Sequence record: MK373778.1 | Strand: one strand, 5' to 3' | Source: Escherichia phage vB_EcoM_WFbE185 | DNA length: 64,000 bases | In this document: in pieces, positions 6,815-61,885 of the stretch | How positions within the stretch are numbered: position 1 is the first letter of the stretch | Layout: every line of letters starts with the position of its first letter | Position numbers and translations under genes: made by a program | Notes under the pieces: generated by a model | Told to the model about the DNA's origin: nothing | Databases searched by the model: none | Seen by the model: the letters and a program-made list of their open reading frames with translations, nothing else

Positions 6815-7369
6815 CTATAGTATCATAGACCATAGTTGTTGTACATCATTTAGCAAAATAAAATCAACTTGTTCTGCCAATGAACGTCTGAACATTAATT
6901 GACAACTTCCGAGGATGAAATCAGGTGCTTCATAGACCGCGATGTAGTATCCTTTAGCTTTCAAAAGTTCAACATCCACCTGGTCATCAAACCATGCATA
7001 AACCGCGTCAACACTTTCAAATCCAAAATAGAACCCTTTAGCCCAATCTTCACTCAATTCAAATGTGTGCTCAATTCTATAGTATCTTAAGATATTTTGT
7101 TCAAGGAGTTTGTCTTCATTTACTGTAGGACGATTAGGGACATTATAGTTGTCGCCGTGATGGTAGAAGTTACCTGAGAGTATTCCATGCTTATCAAGGA
7201 ACTCCCATGTTTCTTCAGAGTTGTCGGTGCCCGACCAACCGTATGGCGAACGAGGTTCTTTATTCCAAGAGGTTTCCCAAATTCTGACGGCTTTACCGTC
7301 TTCGATAGCAATTCCTGGTAATGATTCACGTTGAGTACAAAAACTACGTTCTACGCGGTAAACTAACAT
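6815..7369 (-). CDS. hypothetical protein (184 aa)
   Basis: ORF with upstream promoter at 7396-7424. Confidence 0.5.
   Translation of the reverse strand: MLVYRVERSFCTQRESLPGIAIEDGKAVRIWETSWNKEPRSPYGWSGTDNSEETWEFLDKHGILSGNFYHHGDNYNVPNRPTVNEDKLLEQNILRYYRIEHTFELSEDWAKGFYFGFESVDAVYAWFDDQVDVELLKAKGYYIAVYEAPDFILGSCQLMFRRSLAEQVDFILLNDVQQLWSMIL
6817..6845 (-). promoter_or_regulatory. early-type sigma70 promoter (-35 TGTACA, -10 TACTAT with TGn)
   Basis: Member of a repeated intergenic consensus TGTTAtTATAGACCTATCAAC with GTTTAC/TGTACA 17-18 bp upstream. Confidence 0.5.
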
Positions 7370-7395
7370 ATTATTCTCCTCTGGTTGATATGGTT

Positions 7396-7424
7396 ATAAT
7401 ATCAAAACCAGAGGAGAAGTAAAC
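7396..7424 (-). promoter_or_regulatory. early-type promoter (-35 GTTTAC, 17 bp, -10 TATTAT)
   Basis: GTTTAC-N17-TATTAT on minus strand; flanking inverted repeat CTGGTT...AACCAG. Confidence 0.55.
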
Positions 7425-7428
7425 TACT

Positions 7429-7848
7429 TTATGCAAAAGATGCTTGGCTATATCCTTTGATTTGGAATTCAGGAACTACCATGAACTGTCCAGCGAAAAC
7501 GATGTTATAAAGCTTAACACCATCTTCTACCCAATGGTCGCTAATAAATCCGGCGATTTGCTTAGTTTTCCATGGTGTTCCATCAGTTGCCGCAGCAATA
7601 GTGAATTCATGGTCTTTTTCAACAGAAACTGATCTGCATAGTCCCCATTTGAACGCTTTTTCTTCTGGTTCAATGAATTGGCTTTTAACGTAGCCAATGT
7701 TACCATCGGCGTCACGAACTTTAACTTCGTTACGTCCAAAAACCGGATCACTCACAGAAAGAACTTCAACCAACTTCCCAGCAACTTTAGAGCGAGAAGC
7801 AACAGATACATATACGTAATCACCTGTAGAGAGATTTACAATATTCAT
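7429..7848 (-). CDS. paralog family protein A (139 aa)
   Basis: Shares RSK(V/A)AGKLVEV and D(H/Q)WVEDG.KLYNIVF.G.F.VV motifs with the next two genes. Confidence 0.5.
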   Translation of the reverse strand: MNIVNLSTGDYVYVSVASRSKVAGKLVEVLSVSDPVFGRNEVKVRDADGNIGYVKSQFIEPEEKAFKWGLCRSVSVEKDHEFTIAAATDGTPWKTKQIAGFISDHWVEDGVKLYNIVFAGQFMVVPEFQIKGYSQASFA

Positions 7849-7857
7849 AATAATTCC

Positions 7858-8322
7858 TTAAGCTTTACGAGGAGACACATAGCGAGTGATTTCAGATTCT
7901 TTAACAACTCGGAAGTCACCTAAGAATACGATATTGTATAACTTTTCACCATCTTCAACCCATTGGTCACTAATGAAGCCACACATAGTATCAGTTTTGC
8001 TTGGATAACCGTATTCATCGATGAAGTCAAATTCTTTATCAGTCTGGAATTCAACGCCTTTGCAAAGGGCCCATTTGAACTGTGTAGTAGGCTCAACTAT
8101 ATCGCTTGAAGCAAAGTGGGCACTTACACGAGTTTCCAAGAATTTAGGACTTACATAGGCGAACTGAGTTTCAGTTTTTCCAGAACTAGGAATGATTCGA
8201 ACTTTAACTTCTTTAATACGGCCCATGCCATTAGTACGAAGTCCTACTACTTCAACCAGCTTTCCTGCAGCTTTAGAACGAGACGCTGTCGATACACGTT
8301 TAATTTCACCAATATTAATCAT
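7858..8322 (-). CDS. paralog family protein B (start moved to Met22; alternative start 8385)
   Basis: Paralog of 7429-7848; the promoter-like element at 8354-8382 lies inside the longer ORF. Confidence 0.45.
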   Translation of the reverse strand: MINIGEIKRVSTASRSKAAGKLVEVVGLRTNGMGRIKEVKVRIIPSSGKTETQFAYVSPKFLETRVSAHFASSDIVEPTTQFKWALCKGVEFQTDKEFDFIDEYGYPSKTDTMCGFISDQWVEDGEKLYNIVFLGDFRVVKESEITRYVSPRKA

Positions 8323-8353
8323 ATTTTTTCTCTCTTTGTTTAAATTGAATTCA

Positions 8354-8382
8354 TTATACTCCATCCATCCTTGGATGTACAA
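8354..8382 (-). promoter_or_regulatory. promoter with palindromic spacer (TGTACA, CATCC-TT-GGATG, TATAAT)
   Basis: Variant of the repeated hairpin-promoter element seen at 8911, 51151 and 52171. Confidence 0.4.
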
Positions 8383-8384
8383 CA

Positions 8385-8879
8385 TTAATTTAGAATATTA
8401 ACTACTGCACTACGTGGAACAACGCTAAAATCACCGGCATGAACAACGTTCAGAAGTTCAACCCCATCTTCAATCCACTGATCAGTTACCCATCCACTCA
8501 CTGGACCTGCGAACGGACGACGAATTGAAACAGCTTTACACAACAAATCAGTAGGCTCAATAGGCTTAATCAGAGTACCGTACATACAAGCGATATCCAT
8601 ATCAGTACAGATGTCTTTAACGGGTTCTACTTCTTCAACCAACAGTTCAAAGTCGGTGCTTGGAAGGGCGGTAGTAGAAATTGTACCGTATGAATTTTTA
8701 ATTTCTAAGAATAACCAAGGGCCTTCAGCTTGTTTGATGAAGTTAATAATAGTGAAACTATTACCTTGAGTGGCACCTAAAATTTCACAAAACTTTTCAT
8801 AAGCTCGCACTGAAGCACCGTACCAGTTGATTTGTTTTTCGTCTTTCAGGATGTAAGTAGCCGTAGTATTGATATTCAT
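8385..8879 (-). CDS. paralog family protein C (164 aa)
   Basis: C-terminal WVTDQWIEDGVELLNVVHAGDFSVV matches the paralog motif. Confidence 0.5.
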   Translation of the reverse strand: MNINTTATYILKDEKQINWYGASVRAYEKFCEILGATQGNSFTIINFIKQAEGPWLFLEIKNSYGTISTTALPSTDFELLVEEVEPVKDICTDMDIACMYGTLIKPIEPTDLLCKAVSIRRPFAGPVSGWVTDQWIEDGVELLNVVHAGDFSVVPRSAVVNILN

Positions 8880-8910
8880 AATGTTTTTCCTGTTTGGTTA
8901 AGATAGAAAG

Positions 8911-8940
8911 ATTATACTCCAACCATCCTTGGTTGTAAAC
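8911..8940 (-). promoter_or_regulatory. early promoter (-35 GTTTAC, -10 TATAAT) with 6-bp stem hairpin CAACCA-AGGA-TGGTTG in the spacer
   Basis: A 46-bp element identical to the one at 51135-51180. Confidence 0.55.
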
Positions 8941-8945
8941 TGGTT

Positions 8946-20281: not shown

Positions 20282-20307
20282 TTTGTTCTCCAGTAGTTGA
20301 TAGGTCT

Positions 20308-20336
20308 ATAATAACACAACTACTGGAGAAGTAAAC
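20308..20336 (-). promoter_or_regulatory. early promoter (-35 GTTTAC, 17 bp, TGT-TATTAT) inside a 14-bp perfect inverted repeat
   Basis: Arms 20286-20299 and 20317-20330 (TTCTCCAGTAGTTG / CAACTACTGGAGAA); the 3' arm contains the SD GGAG of the downstream gene. Confidence 0.6.
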
Positions 20337-30462: not shown

Positions 30463-30496
30463 ATTTCTCTCATTTAATTAGTTGGCCGTCCTTGGC

Positions 30497-30505
30497 ATTA
30501 TATCA
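30497..30505 (-). promoter_or_regulatory. extended -10 element TGA-TATAAT (the TG comes from the gene 43 stop codon)
   Basis: TATAAT abutting the polymerase TGA stop, about 35 nt upstream of the SIS gene ATG; no good -35. Confidence 0.35.
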
Positions 30506-33261: not shown

Positions 33262-33292
33262 ATTATACTCCAAATGGGACCGAAGTCCCATT
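33262..33292 (-). promoter_or_regulatory. -10 TATAAT preceded by hairpin AUGGGAC-UUCG-GUCCCAU after regA
   Basis: Hairpin with UUCG loop directly followed by TGGAGTATAAT; variant of the repeated hairpin-promoter module. Confidence 0.45.
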
Positions 33293-42611: not shown

Positions 42612-42655
42612 TCATTTTAAGACGATAGGAAGATAATAACATGTCTTCCTATCGT
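42612..42655 (-). promoter_or_regulatory. early-type promoter (-35 TGTACA, -10 TATTAT) flanked by 12-bp perfect inverted repeat ACGATAGGAAGA / TCTTCCTATCGT
   Basis: Inverted repeat arms sit in the spacer and just downstream of -10; coordinates approximate. Confidence 0.45.
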
Positions 42656-50172: not shown

Positions 50173-51122
50173 TATAACACCTCAATGGCATTTCGTAAAC
50201 CATCCGCTTTCGCATTCAGAGCTTTTAACGATTTAGTTTGTTCTGCAATCTGGGCTTCGACTTCTTTCAGACGAGATTTGAGATATTCGCGTTCTTCTCT
50301 TAAGTTATCAACTTTTTCTGCTTTAGGCTCTTTAATAGGCTTAGGCTTATACTCGTTAGGGTTCTTCAACTTAATTTGAATGCGAGAACTGTATAACATT
50401 GAACCATTATCTTCGGTTTCATCATACATTTCTACCACGTCCATGATTCTTAACATCATGCGAAGTTTATAAGACAGCGAACGAATGGTTTTATTGTGCT
50501 TCTTAATTTCTTCAGCTTTCATGGTGCCGAGATTACGTGAGTAATAATAAGGAACCTGAATATCAATTGATAATGATGCGGTACCATTACCGGTTGGTTT
50601 GAACACTGCAGTAACCCAATCTTTAGCATGAACTGTATTTGTACGATCATCGCCGCCTGTGAATAATTTACGAGAATGTTTAAAAAGCATATTCACTTGG
50701 TTATTGAATTCACAAGCAAATTTATCAGCAAATTTAGTTTCAGGAATGGTAGATAACCAATCAGCCAAATGAGTCTTTTTAACATCATTAACAATAGTGA
50801 ATTCAACCAAATCGGTTTTAGATGTCACAGATTTAATAAAGCTCGGCTTCATAAAGTTTTTAATGTTATCGCGAGCTACAGTAGAAGATAATAAACGAGA
50901 ACGTTTGAACCATTGAAGCAGTGTCCCTAATGAATGAGAATATGCATTTTGAGTATCTTTACAGATATGATTTTCTTGGCCTATGTATGTACCAAAATCT
51001 CGAAGAATACCACTTACTACATCTCGGTGTGGAACATCAAATCCTAGTGCACCAGAAGCACGTTGGGCATGAACGTTAGCGATAAGACCTGCAAAGTATT
51101 CAATGTAATGTGAACGTGTCAT
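50172..51122 (-). CDS. hypothetical protein (316 aa) with C-terminal coiled coil
   Basis: C-terminal heptad-rich region LREEREYLKSRLKEVEAQIAEQTKSLKALNAK. Confidence 0.5.
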   Translation of the reverse strand: MTRSHYIEYFAGLIANVHAQRASGALGFDVPHRDVVSGILRDFGTYIGQENHICKDTQNAYSHSLGTLLQWFKRSRLLSSTVARDNIKNFMKPSFIKSVTSKTDLVEFTIVNDVKKTHLADWLSTIPETKFADKFACEFNNQVNMLFKHSRKLFTGGDDRTNTVHAKDWVTAVFKPTGNGTASLSIDIQVPYYYSRNLGTMKAEEIKKHNKTIRSLSYKLRMMLRIMDVVEMYDETEDNGSMLYSSRIQIKLKNPNEYKPKPIKEPKAEKVDNLREEREYLKSRLKEVEAQIAEQTKSLKALNAKADGLRNAIEVL

Positions 51123-51150
51123 AATATTTTCCTCTCGTTAAGATAGAAAG

Positions 51151-51180
51151 ATTATACTCCAACCATCCTTGGTTGTAAAC
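51151..51180 (-). promoter_or_regulatory. early promoter with spacer hairpin (copy of the 8911-8940 element)
   Basis: 46-bp identity with 8895-8940: gttaagatagaaagattatactccaaccatccttggttgtaaactg. Confidence 0.55.
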
Positions 51181-51184
51181 TGAT

Positions 51185-52144
51185 TTATGATTTTAACGCA
51201 TTCATTGCGTTAAAAAGTTTAGAATACTGCAACTGGAGATTCGTTACAACACTTTGAGCATCACGAAGCTTAGCTTGTGCTTTGTCAAGTTCAACAGACA
51301 GTTGGTCCATAGTGGCCTTGATTTGATTGTAATGGTAATCTTCGGCCGGAAGAAGGTCATTATAAACATTTAGTTTTACTGCAGACAGTTTGCACACATT
51401 TGGCAAACCTTTAAACATTGATTTAGCCGAAGTAGAATAAGCACTTAGGACTTCGGCTTGTTCAATTGGGGTCCCAGTAAGCGATGATTCAAACAATGCA
51501 TTTTCCTTTTTAAGATTTTGATAGTATTCAGAGTCTTTGTGCCACCATGGCGCAGGAACCTTTTTACCAATAGATACACGTGCCTGGATAGCGATATGGC
51601 CTTTATTCTTGATAGGGTTGATAATATTAAGCTCGCGAGAATAAATTGCTTTAATCTGGTGGATATTATCACCTAACACTTCCAACGCTTGGTGAAATAC
51701 ACGAGCAACGTTATCATTCTTAGGTTTATACGTAAGAGTGAACTCGTTCTCACTGATAACCATGATTTCTAACTTATCGTAAGTATATTTCAAATGTTTC
51801 ATGTTAATTGCTTGAGGACGAATACGAGAAGCAATGGCCATCAGATTGTTAAGGTTATTTCTGAACTGTTTAGCAAAATATTGTCCATAACCGCCAATGC
51901 AAAAATTACGAAGTTTCTGTTTGGCCAATAAACGGCTGAACTCGCCATTTTTAATGAACTCTTTAACGGGTGTGTTAGTAACGCATTCAAATTGAGTAAA
52001 CTTACGAGAATTAATCCCATAATACGAACAGATTTCCTCAATCTCTTCAGGAGTCTTTACAGGCATACGGATAGGATTAGGTCCTGGAGTATATGCGTTC
52101 GAGGTAAATTCTTTGATAAGTTCTCTACGTGTAATAAAAGCCAT
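51185..52144 (-). CDS. hypothetical protein (319 aa) with C-terminal coiled coil
   Basis: C-terminal MDQLSVELDKAQAKLRDAQSVVTNLQLQY. Confidence 0.5.
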   Translation of the reverse strand: MAFITRRELIKEFTSNAYTPGPNPIRMPVKTPEEIEEICSYYGINSRKFTQFECVTNTPVKEFIKNGEFSRLLAKQKLRNFCIGGYGQYFAKQFRNNLNNLMAIASRIRPQAINMKHLKYTYDKLEIMVISENEFTLTYKPKNDNVARVFHQALEVLGDNIHQIKAIYSRELNIINPIKNKGHIAIQARVSIGKKVPAPWWHKDSEYYQNLKKENALFESSLTGTPIEQAEVLSAYSTSAKSMFKGLPNVCKLSAVKLNVYNDLLPAEDYHYNQIKATMDQLSVELDKAQAKLRDAQSVVTNLQLQYSKLFNAMNALKS

Positions 52145-52170
52145 TTTATATTCCTCATGTTGAAAAATTT

Positions 52171-52199
52171 ATTATACTCCAACCATCCTTGGTTGTACA
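52171..52199 (-). promoter_or_regulatory. early promoter with spacer hairpin (third copy; -35 TGTACA)
   Basis: Shares ttatactccaaccatccttggttgta with the 8911 and 51151 elements. Confidence 0.5.
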
Positions 52200-53195
52200 T
52201 CATTCCTTAAGAAGTTTTACTACTTGAATAAGATTAGCTCGTTCTGTTTTATTTTTACCGTTTAAGCCTGCTAATCGTGAGATTTCATCGTCAGTCTGCT
52301 GAATAGTTACATTAAGTTCGTTAATCAAAGCTTCAAAGTATTTGATTTGCTCAGCATGTTTTGATTCAAATTTCTGAACTGGAATAACGTCTTGGTTTAG
52401 TTCATCAATAAGGTCTTTAAGAGCATCTTCTTGGTTGATATCATATTCAACTTCTTTTATTTCTTCAACAAGCTCGTCTTTATATCTAACGTCTTTTAGT
52501 CCTGGTGCTGGTCCTGAAATCTCTTCTTTAAGAGTACAAACATACCCAATACGGTATCCAATGCCGTCTCGCTTGATATCAACTTCGTCGATAAATCCAC
52601 AATGTTTAAGACCAGAGCCGATTAGGTCAAAATATCCTTGACGTCGTCCTTCAAACGTTACACGAACTACTAAGACAGTTTTGCCTGCAACCTTTTGAAG
52701 CTCACATTTATAAAAGTCAGTTGAACCTGAATAACTTGGATGAGTTTTAAAGTTCATCTGACGATCTAGGCCCATTTGTAAGCGTGCTGTTACGGCCATA
52801 AAACGTGTTTGGTTCTCGTTAAGATGAGCAACAATCCATTTCAAAGGCATTTTACACTGTTCACGGCCGAACAAATCAGTACGTCCTAGATTACGCAGGA
52901 TGTTGTTAGAGTTAATCATCGACAGAACGTTAAGTTTATTCAGCGCGCTGAAGATTCCATCAGCCATTGATTTTCCATAACCTTTACACGCTTTAATAAG
53001 TGCTCGCGGCAGATTAGTATAGATTTCAGACGGCATATGAAAATCAAATTTACTAGTCAGTAATTGATGAACTTGGATAGCAATTTGTTCATAATTAAGT
53101 GCCCTGCGATCATTATGGTCTTTAAACCATACTTTAATCTGTGAAGCACATAAACCGTTAATTTCATGTTTTACCGCATCAGATGTAATGCTCAT
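52200..53195 (-). CDS. hypothetical protein (331 aa) with C-terminal coiled coil
   Basis: C-terminal IKYFEALINELNVTIQQTDDEISRLAG. Confidence 0.5.
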   Translation of the reverse strand: MSITSDAVKHEINGLCASQIKVWFKDHNDRRALNYEQIAIQVHQLLTSKFDFHMPSEIYTNLPRALIKACKGYGKSMADGIFSALNKLNVLSMINSNNILRNLGRTDLFGREQCKMPLKWIVAHLNENQTRFMAVTARLQMGLDRQMNFKTHPSYSGSTDFYKCELQKVAGKTVLVVRVTFEGRRQGYFDLIGSGLKHCGFIDEVDIKRDGIGYRIGYVCTLKEEISGPAPGLKDVRYKDELVEEIKEVEYDINQEDALKDLIDELNQDVIPVQKFESKHAEQIKYFEALINELNVTIQQTDDEISRLAGLNGKNKTERANLIQVVKLLKE

Positions 53196-53257
53196 AACTA
53201 TTTCCTCAGATTGAATTGGAACTCAAAACCATTATAACCCGTCCTTGGGTAAAGCGT

Positions 53258-53785
53258 TTATGCGTGAACCGTCTTTAAACGTTCTTCAAATTTCCGAAGA
53301 GTACTAATACGTTCTGCTTTCTGTTTTGTATAGTTTGCAATACGTTCTGAAGTGAGAGCGTATCGTTCGTTTACTGTTTCTTTCATGAAGTCAGGGATTT
53401 CACGAGAAGCTTTAATTTCATCAAACTTATCGAGTACTGCCTGGTCTTCAGCAATTAAATTTTCGTACATCTCGATATCTTTCTTGATGAAGTCGATATC
53501 TTCCTGGGTTACTTTGGATAAACGAGATGCCTTATCCTTTTTGTACTGCTCGTTAGTTTCACGAGACCAGAATAATGTACGTTTTTTGTTAGTGTTTTTG
53601 TAGACTTCCACAATTCCAACTGAATCGATGATAACAATCCAATTCCAGCGAGATTTGAAAATCTGACCTCCGTCCACGGTAATCTCGTTACCATAAGCAA
53701 TGTCATTAAAGAACTTACTTTGTGCTTCAGATTTAAATTTACCGTCGTTATAATTTACCAGGTTGAAAATATCTTTAGCGTTCAT
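53258..53785 (-). CDS. hypothetical protein (175 aa), coiled-coil rich
   Basis: ORF downstream of promoter 53813-53841. Confidence 0.5.
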   Translation of the reverse strand: MNAKDIFNLVNYNDGKFKSEAQSKFFNDIAYGNEITVDGGQIFKSRWNWIVIIDSVGIVEVYKNTNKKRTLFWSRETNEQYKKDKASRLSKVTQEDIDFIKKDIEMYENLIAEDQAVLDKFDEIKASREIPDFMKETVNERYALTSERIANYTKQKAERISTLRKFEERLKTVHA

Positions 53786-53812: not shown

Positions 53813-53841
53813 ATAATAACATAACCATAGACCTTGTAAAC
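53813..53841 (-). promoter_or_regulatory. early-type promoter (-35 GTTTAC, 17 bp, TGT-TATTAT)
   Basis: Same consensus block as 20308-20336; GGTCTAT/ATAGACC inverted repeat. Confidence 0.55.
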
Positions 53842-61828: not shown

Positions 61829-61856
61829 TTTGATTTCTCCTCTAGTTGACAAGTCT

Positions 61857-61885
61857 ATAGTAACACAACTAGAGGAGAAGTAAAC
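61857..61885 (-). promoter_or_regulatory. early promoter (-35 GTTTAC, 17 bp, TGT-TACTAT) inside a 14-bp perfect inverted repeat
   Basis: Arms 61835-61848 and 61866-61879 (TTCTCCTCTAGTTG / CAACTAGAGGAGAA); the 3' arm carries the regB SD. Confidence 0.6.

Follow-up and report, generated by a model that had tools for sequence, protein, structure and literature searches.

Why should a phage promoter carry an inverted repeat in the spacer between its −35 and −10 boxes, and why should the same arrangement recur in front of several genes? The question is raised by a 64,000-nucleotide stretch of the genome of Escherichia phage vB_EcoM_WFbE185 (sequence record MK373778.1; hereafter the window), a Mosigvirus (RB69-like, T4-type), in which one hairpin-promoter element recurs at two separate loci. 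The original prediction for this DNA took the spacer palindrome for an operator through which a single DNA-binding protein could co-regulate the promoters, and regarded the repeats as potential recombination sites. Here, each copy is interpreted as probably being a complete intergenic cassette of the promoter early stem-loop (PeSL) type, which in an RB69-like phage combines an early promoter, a hairpin present only on read-through RNA and homology for gene exchange.

A promoter element present in four copies

A search of the window with the 26-nt core of the element, allowing at most three mismatches, returns four matches, compared with none in 100 dinucleotide-preserving shuffles, and the predicted repetition is therefore real. 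All copies are read on the minus strand, on which the element has a 17-nt spacer between T(T/G)TACA and TATAAT. In this spacer, CA(A/T)CCA-AGGA-TGG(T/A)TG is followed by GAG, and a hairpin with a 6-bp stem and a 4-nt loop is thus contained wholly within it. Copy 1, the putative promoter of a motB.1 homologue, occupies 8911-8939 (−35 TTTACA, 8934-8939; hairpin CAACCA-AGGA-TGGTTG, 8920-8935; −10, 8911-8916) and copy 3, that of an nrdC.3 homologue, 51151-51179 (hairpin 51160-51175). The two had been described as identical over 46 bp; the identity is exact, although its limits are displaced by two bases from those first given and are 8897-8942 and 51137-51182. The shorter variants suspected near 8354-8382 and 52171-52199 are both true copies. 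Copy 4, upstream of an nrdC.5 homologue, spans 52171-52199 (hairpin 52180-52195), has a −35 box, TGTACA, that abuts the upstream stop codon, and has a 27-bp exact core (52171-52197) in common with copies 1 and 3. Copy 2, upstream of a motB homologue, lies at 8353-8381 (hairpin CATCCA-AGGA-TGGATG, 8362-8377; −10, 8353-8358) and departs from the others by two coupled hairpin changes, CATCCA/TGGATG for CAACCA/TGGTTG; its −35 box is TGTACA.

Each copy fills the entire intergenic gap of 55-66 nt upstream of its gene (the motB.1, motB, nrdC.3 and nrdC.5 homologues). Between the stop codon of the upstream gene and the −35 box there are 0-6 nt, and the ATG of the downstream gene lies 26-31 nt after the −10 box, preceded by a purine-rich Shine-Dalgarno (SD) sequence. 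AT content between −60 and −36 is 0.84, 0.64, 0.72 and 0.72, against 0.63 for the window, the enrichment being modest for copy 1. The copies match the promoter consensus at 10-11 of 12 positions, with a −10 box that lacks TGn, and are the top-scoring sites of their regions. That they are promoters, as first proposed, is supported by the TTTACA-N17-TATAAT arrangement 26-31 nt before an SD-preceded ATG, and by relatives in T4 that are recognised promoters. One of these, PnrdC.4, is 'early promoter 50.0' in GenBank U76612.1 and reads GTTTAC-TTTGCCACAAGGATGTGG-TATAAT, these being exactly the hexamers of the annotation, with the same hairpin apex; another, PnrdC.7 (CGCTTTATACCAAGGATGGTATAAT), is a mapped middle promoter with its start at 53325, 7 nt after a −10 box embedded in the hairpin. 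Copy 2 occupies a position orthologous to the T4 motB.1-motB intergenic promoter, whose spacer differs, and the site of copy 3 carries a 'promoter' annotation in phage NBG1. Judged by sequence and by these T4 relatives, host σ70 RNA polymerase would begin early transcription about 7 nt after the −10 box, with predicted starts near 8904, 8346, 51144 and 52164 for copies 1 to 4, and the four promoters would express the motB.1, motB, nrdC.3 and nrdC.5 homologues.

The region shares 98.6% identity with Escherichia phage moskry and 95-97% with RB69, APCEc01 and numerous further Mosigvirus genomes. Copies 1 and 2 lie in a minus-strand early region of T4 type, in which dda and dexA are followed by MotB-family genes, and copies 3 and 4 in the nrdC.x region, where the RB69 annotation gives nrdC.3, nrdC.5, nrdC.6 and nrdC.8. 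The gene at 8385-8879 is orthologous to T4 motB.1 (BLASTP, E = 2e-28) and that at 7858-8322 to T4 motB (BLASTP, E = 2e-46). The downstream genes had been called paralogous, which holds for the MotB-family members (E = 2e-10) but not for the three nrdC.3/.5/.6-like proteins of about 320 amino acids, between which BLASTP detects no similarity. Three tandem genes with a MotB C-terminal domain occupy 7429-8879, namely the motB.1-like and motB-like genes and a further MotB-like paralogue. T4 motB.1 appears to be truncated by a frameshift relative to the window phage, its ...EDGVELLNVVHAGEYSVVPRSAVVAILN coding sequence running on in another frame. For T4 MotB.1, an LSm-like and possibly RNA-binding N-terminal fold has been predicted (PMC12152347).

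The 46-nt element was retrieved from 221 phage records, exclusively Mosigvirus (3-4 copies each) or Dhakavirus (1-2 copies each), from which it follows that the four copies of the window are essentially the whole set for the genome.

Single genes lost or gained at the element

The suggestion of recombination can be checked directly in related genomes, in which rearrangements between copies are found at both loci. Between copies 1 and 2 lies the motB.1-like cassette (8385-8879, minus strand); about 18 related Mosigvirus records lack it, and in these a query spanning the junction is contiguous. In PTE-Eco05, AV118 and PTK, which lack this gene, one element stands at the junction; its dexA-side part, up to and including the hairpin, matches copy 1, and the part that begins just after the −10 box matches copy 2, placing the crossover within GGAGTATAAT. 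Similarly, copies 3 and 4 enclose the nrdC.5-like cassette (51185-52144, minus strand), which 21 of 153 related records lack, as judged by contiguity of the corresponding junction query. PTE-Eco05 lacks 51185-52144 too, and here the crossover falls inside the 26-bp core common to copies 3 and 4. A single chimeric element is thus found at each cassette junction. The two polymorphisms are unlinked, as G2469, WFK and F27 lack only the nrdC.5-like gene and JK42 and phi25-307 only the motB.1-like gene.

These junctions strongly support the view that the near-identical cores serve as short homologies for the loss or gain of the one gene they flank, and the suggestion that the repeats are recombination sites is borne out with two gene cassettes whose presence or absence is decided inside the element. 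The copies also appear to exchange patches of sequence with one another: the sequence after the −10 box of the nrdC.3 promoter is, in the window phage and RB69, CTTTCTATC, identical to copy 1, whereas other Mosigviruses have GAAT(C/T)TATC there, which resembles copy 2. Exchange is presumed to proceed by the general recombination of the phage or by slippage, on homologies of 10-46 bp. We know of no integrase or dedicated recombinase for these elements.

Some further similarities lie at the borders of the repeats. The 30 nt upstream of the −35 boxes of copies 2 and 4 (8382-8411 and 52200-52229) are identical at 20 of 30 positions, although the proteins whose C-terminal tails they specify (...SAVVNILN and ...IQVVKLLKE) are unrelated. 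From this comparison, the repeat unit seems to extend into the 3' ends of the genes upstream of both copies, and the same tail sequence is also found downstream of T4 motB.1. The T4 motB promoter region contains GGGACC-agagTATAAT-GGTCCC followed by a second GTGGAGTATAAA, an arrangement suggestive of a scar from exchange between two promoter elements. Close to copy 3, about 14 nt upstream of its −35 box, a perfect 8-bp hairpin, TTAACGCA-ATGAA-TGCGTTAA (51193-51213, minus strand), lies in the last codons of the nrdC.5-like gene.

Probable assignment to the PeSL class

PeSLs have been described as strong σ70 promoters with an AT-rich upstream part that includes the upstream stop codon, an SD sequence and ATG at the other end, and a stem-loop that most often lies either between −35 and −10 or across the −10 box (PMC2839356). 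They sit in hyperplastic regions, next to indels, and a part has been ascribed to them in the insertions, deletions and replacements by which close relatives differ (PMC2839356, PMC4122927). The model was later extended to T4/PST and KVP40/nt-1, with the T4/PST consensus TTTACW-N17-TAYWAT (PMC4122927). The window elements have the same parts, namely a σ70-type promoter, an AT-rich side bearing the stop codon, a stem-loop in the spacer, and an SD sequence and ATG. They also sit in hyperplastic surroundings, the motB and nrdC.x regions, where the two single-gene polymorphisms are broken inside the element. On these grounds it is probable that each copy is a complete PeSL-type cassette. Neither PMC2839356 nor PMC4122927 mentions RB69, motB or nrdC, the subfamily of T4, Mosigvirus and Dhakavirus hairpins with an AAGGA(T/C) apex is not described in PMC4122927, and a literature search returned nothing that links PeSLs with RB69 or Mosigvirus and nothing on these hairpin sequences. 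A constant GGA loop on covarying stems, shared with four T4 promoters, has no earlier description that we could find.

A hairpin family with a constant loop

Among the Mosigvirus and Dhakavirus copies, two stem types occur, CAACCA/TGGTTG and CATCCA/TGGATG, which differ by a coupled exchange between A-U and U-A with no intermediates seen, and a T-to-C change that recurs leaves the closing pair open. The third stem pair differs between the phages at the orthologous nrdC.3 promoter, being G-C in T4, A-T in Mosigvirus and T-A in Dhakavirus. T4 contributes four members: PnrdC.3 (TTTAA-AGCCA-AGGA-TGGCT-CGGAGTATAAA), PnrdC.4 (GTTTACTTTG-CCACA-AGGA-TGTGG-TATAAT), PnrdC.7 (CGCT-TTATACCA-AGGA-TGGTATAA-T) and a fourth upstream of rIIA.1 (TACCACA-AGGA-TGTGGTA). 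Across the family, one apex, C-AAGGA(T/C)-G, is set on lower stems that differ but are fully complementary, and it is always in the transcribed-strand orientation (10 of 10). The lower arms of the wider family are CAACC, CATCC, AGCC, CCAC, TACCAC, TTATACC and ACCC, and the distance from the loop to the −10 box ranges from 3 to 10 nt. Thus, at least seven lower stems, all Watson-Crick, are combined with one constant loop across three genera.

When counted as C-AAGGAY-G with a stem of at least 3 bp, the apex occurs six times in the window, each time on the minus strand, against 0.38 expected (maximum of two in 100 shuffles), and four times in the first 78 kb of T4 (1-78 kb), against 0.37 in shuffles. 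No family member is found in T4 120-169 kb, nor any CAAGGANG hairpin of this kind in RB49 1-50 kb. In 0.96 Mb of unrelated viral contigs, AGGA hairpins occur about once per 60 kb; only three have the CA...TG apex, one of which overlaps a TATAAT. In a census, hairpins with GGA in the loop were as a whole not clearly enriched, which restricts the signal to the CAAGGAYG apex.

Besides the four copies, the window contains two members with the CAAGGACG apex, both on the minus strand. One, inside a promoter of the MotA-box type upstream of the nrdC.6 homologue (53231-53256), comprises a MotA-box-like CGCTTTA, the hairpin ACCC-AAGGAC-GGGT (53237-53250) and TATAAT; it corresponds to CGCTTTATACCAAGGATGGTATAAT of T4 and Dhakavirus (T4 PnrdC.7). 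The other is a weak member just after the gene 43 stop codon (30485-30502), where TATAAT is followed by GCC-AAGGAC-GGC, a hairpin with a 3-bp stem (30485-30496). An unrelated viral contig of environmental origin (IMG/VR) has, around position 529, ATACACA-AGGA-TGTGTAT running into TATAAT just before an SD sequence and ATG, an arrangement like that of T4.

In an alignment of 11 sequences, five of seven pairs have changed on both sides, and the covariation score of 0.597 (0.137 in shuffles, none of 500 reaching the observed value; at most 0.176 in controls with the partner slid) is accompanied by continued pairing of the two outer pairs in 10 and 8 of the 11 sequences. One T4 member, TGCCAC/GTGGTA, has its stem lengthened by a G-T pair, which makes a G-U wobble on the sense strand only. 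Taken together, the constant loop, the changing stems and the fixed orientation point to a family that behaves as an RNA or single-strand hairpin with a recognised loop.

However, a number of considerations weigh against the interpretation offered here. The search pattern itself fixed the apex and the three innermost pairs, and the independent evidence is confined to the enrichment, the strand bias and the outer pairs; moreover, the copies are related by descent and gene conversion, hence are not independent observations. The hairpin itself, at −6.9 kcal/mol with three G-C pairs, is not more stable than shuffled sequence (z of −0.85 to +0.6 in a 66-nt context). A terminator scan calls none of the copies, which have no U-tract and are followed by the tail GAGUAUAAUCUUUCU. 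Promoter activity and start sites in the window phage are predictions from the DNA sequence. At the motB.1 junction, the homology is short (10-11 bp exact) and the event could represent slippage or illegitimate recombination, whilst junction data do not tell a deletion from an insertion.

Other possibilities for the hairpin were considered. A mini open reading frame beginning at the hairpin ATG was rejected, as the SD-like AAGGA abuts the AUG without spacing and the AAGGAC variants lose the AUG altogether. A broad class of promoters with a hairpin plus GGAG was rejected likewise: an IMG/VR scan for TTTACA-N13-GGAGTATAAT gave 120 loci, mostly chance matches, and once homologous copies are removed, spacers with stems of at least 5 bp occur at about chance frequency, which leaves no evidence for such a class. 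Rfam has no match in the window at gathering thresholds and, at E values up to 10, only noise in 50900-53400.

What the spacer hairpin might do

By its geometry, the hairpin lies upstream of the transcription start, and it is consequently present as RNA only on transcripts that read through from upstream, on which it follows the stop codon of the upstream gene by about 10-16 nt. The 17-nt spacer is the only unconstrained space in a gap of 55-66 nt, for which reason a signal on read-through RNA may have been packed there. Marking of a 3' end, processing and protein binding are possible functions of such a signal, and the GGA-containing loop would be the recognised part. Candidate readers of this loop are CsrA, RegB and, through the SD-like AAGGA, the 30S subunit. 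The most specific version of the idea is a dedicated recognition hairpin that recruits a trans-acting factor to read-through RNA alone, for which host CsrA is the best match in sequence; as a complete account this is considered improbable. If it were true, T-even phages would be using a host RNA-binding protein to silence or stabilise the read-through copies of accessory genes, and a promoter spacer would double as space for an RNA signal that moves along with the gene cassette.

The operator model holds that the palindrome is the duplex site of one sequence-specific protein, which would co-repress the four promoters by blocking polymerase. A 16-bp inverted repeat between −35 and −10 does occupy a position from which bound proteins block polymerase, it is common to four promoters, and two of these drive MotB-family genes that the depositors annotated as transcription regulators. 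Nevertheless, in the wider family the arms differ from copy to copy and yet stay complementary, and what is shared is the non-palindromic AAGGA(T/C) centre, always on the sense strand. A dimeric duplex binder would be expected to keep its half-sites and not the centre, and the operator is disfavoured on this account. Its position relative to the −10 box would also have to shift by 7 nt (3-10 nt). MotB is reported to bind DNA tightly but non-specifically, and its knockdown to alter the T4 transcriptome hardly at all (PMC7827196); a review of T4 prereplicative transcription ascribes control of early promoters to the modification that RNA polymerase undergoes (Alt), with no mention of an operator or repressor. 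With these observations against it, the reading first proposed for the palindrome becomes highly unlikely. The suggestion that the hairpin is a functionless passenger, copied with an ancestral promoter and its cassettes and kept uniform by gene conversion, has other points in its favour. The copies are clearly homologous and swap patches, as at the nrdC.3 promoter after its −10 box; the T4 members are clustered, with three of the four within nrdC.3-nrdC.8 and no member in 120-169 kb; thermodynamically, the hairpin does not stand out; and coupled changes in a palindrome may arise in one step by intrastrand template switching. It is harder to reconcile with at least seven different Watson-Crick lower stems on a constant loop in three genera, with outer pairs, not imposed by the search, that remain paired in 8-10 of 11 sequences, or with an asymmetric loop kept in the same orientation in 10 of 10 cases, since under neutrality the loop should drift fastest. 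A passenger hairpin is accordingly judged a poor prospect.

Two further proposals accept a function on read-through RNA. According to one, CsrA, another protein or the 30S subunit binds the GGA loop, and the bound protein could bridge to a GGA-containing SD sequence about 38 nt downstream or shield the RNA, with the result that the downstream gene would be translated only from the hairpin-free transcript of its own promoter. In the CsrA core, CA-N-GGA-N-G, the recurrent T-to-C variant (AAGGAC) falls at the one position that is unspecified. CsrA binds with high affinity to RUACARGGAUGU, whose ACA and GGA do not vary and whose GGA sits in the loop of a hairpin (PMC4347634; also PMC11633198). All family members expose GGA in their loop, AGGA or AAGGAC. 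T4 ACAAGGAUGU (PrIIA.1 and PnrdC.4) agrees with the ligand at 10 of 12 positions, ACA and GGA included, and the window copies agree at 9 of 12, whilst the downstream SD sequence contains GGA in three of the four window copies. Silencing confined to read-through RNA would moreover have parallels in other early promoters of the window, which may achieve it through pairing between the SD sequence and the spacer. Conversely, the window copies have CCA where the consensus from SELEX has its invariant ACA, four of ten family members lack GGA in the downstream SD sequence, no enrichment is seen for GGA hairpins as a whole, a likeness to CsrA sites is common to all SD-like loops, and a literature search found no tie between CsrA and T4-type phages. 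Binding of this kind is therefore regarded as unlikely. In the other proposal, RegB would cut the GGAG 3' of the hairpin or the loop GGAU on read-through RNA, leaving the upstream mRNA with a protective terminal hairpin and inactivating the downstream cistron. RegB cleaves GGAG/U in early intergenic regions, and its strong sites conform to GGAGRAYARAA (PMC3014915); GGAG-UAUAAU-N fits this at 4-5 of the seven downstream positions, which is a partial match. GGAG stands directly before the −10 box in the four copies, where it follows the stem by 1 nt, in the regA-43 site and in T4 PnrdC.3; other early promoters of the window have TGn in its place, and the SD sequences of the four downstream genes lack GGAG, unlike those of many neighbours. 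However, secondary structure protects against RegB and RB69 regB is divergent (PMC3014915), and neither GGAG nor GGAU is constant in the family, as is seen from the AAGGAC variants and from T4 PnrdC.4, PnrdC.7 and PrIIA.1. We consider RegB processing decidedly improbable.

Other promoter hairpins in the window

The regA-43 intergenic hairpin at 33262-33292 (minus strand) had been listed as a related site. It consists of AATGGGAC-TTCG-GTCCCATT (33273-33292), TGGAG and TATAAT (33262-33267), and shares with the element only an exact 11-mer, TTGGAGTATAAT; as RNA, the hairpin is AATGGGAC-UUCG-GUCCCAUU. The T4 equivalent is AAGGGGC-UUCG-GCCCCUU followed by ATTTGGAGTATAAT, the latter being identical in both phages, and the stems under the UUCG tetraloop have changed in a compensatory manner (GGGAC/GTCCC in the window, GGGGC/GCCCC in T4). 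As the T4 TATAAT lies 5 nt upstream of the mapped start of the middle promoter P43 (29933), the TATAAT at 33262 corresponds to the P43 −10 box. The site was accordingly rejected as a fifth copy after alignment with T4, and is a conserved gene-boundary hairpin combined with the gene 43 promoter. Among the promoter hairpins folded in a 66-nt context, it alone stands out from shuffles (z = −1.7). The T4 loop region, GGGCTTCGG, overlaps the expected position of the P43 MotA box.

In at least eight other early promoters of the window, a 5' arm in the spacer, right after the −35 box, pairs with the leader across the −10 box. Three of these have perfect stems of 13-14 bp over a GGAG SD sequence (−21 to −24 kcal/mol; 7374-7418, 20286-20330 and 61835-61879, minus strand), and the three covary (CTCTGG/CCAGAG, CAGTAG/CTACTG and CTCTAG/CTAGAG). 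From their position, such hairpins would form on read-through RNA only and would block translation of the downstream gene from read-through transcripts. Further spacer-leader hairpins are seen at 42622-42655, around 53813-53840 and around 6817-6845.

Significance

With these elements, the PeSL model of gene shuffling comes to cover T-even phages of the RB69-like and JS98-like groups, which are widely isolated for phage therapy and biocontrol, and gains evidence on a population scale, since two accessory genes are independently present or absent in about one genome in eight, cut exactly at the element. The promoter and the hairpin, lumped together in the PeSL name, become separable, as the T-even subfamily keeps the GGA loop whilst its stems drift by compensatory change. 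With defined RNAs, and with CsrA, RegB and the ribosome as three candidates, the purpose of the stem-loop can be put to a direct test. The elements also predict where engineered insertions and deletions in these phages should be tolerated and where they should be unstable.

Comparison with known systems

The closest counterparts are the PeSLs of RB49 and phi1, with which the window elements share the order of parts, repetition beside non-essential open reading frames and indel breakpoints within the element (PMC2839356). The stems of RB49 and phi1 are built from G-tracts and C-tracts, and one of them terminates transcription as well as rrnB T1 (PMC2839356). In contrast, the window elements have a short 6-bp stem, no U-tract, a constant AAGGA(T/C) loop and TTTACA in place of TTGACA as the −35 box, and number only four per genome, or six when the apex relatives are included. 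The window hairpin is a poor intrinsic terminator, and hence the terminator role of the one GC-rich RB49 PeSL may not transfer. Excised mini-circles have been demonstrated for the RB49 and phi1 PeSLs (PMC2839356). The elements of T4/PST and KVP40/nt-1 resemble those of the window in their TTTACW-N17-TAYWAT promoters and gene swaps, and include early or MotA-type middle promoters (PMC4122927). Their T4/PST stem-loops, given as AGNA-loop-TCNT and placed just upstream of the promoter (PMC4122927), are unlike the spacer hairpin of the window. T4 PnrdC.4 and PnrdC.7 carry the same apex, within a recognised promoter and in the same region of the genome, on different lower stems; there, the 3' arm runs into or over the −10 box, with TGTGG-TATAAT supplying the TGn, whereas in the window the arm ends 3 nt before it.

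The T4 genes e, soc, 49 and I-TevI have promoter-internal hairpins that sequester the ribosome-binding site, and the transcript of their own promoter lacks the inhibitory upstream RNA element; the three long-stemmed hairpins of the window (7374-7418, 20286-20330 and 61835-61879) are clear examples of this logic. The four copies are alike in sparing the transcript of their own promoter whilst read-through RNA carries the hairpin, but differ in that the hairpin closes within the spacer and does not pair with the SD sequence, so that a trans-acting factor would be required if the downstream gene were to be affected. Finally, the gene cassettes of integrons, an analogy drawn by the authors of the PeSL model, resemble the present system in that single, promoter-associated genes are bounded by short repeated sites of exchange.

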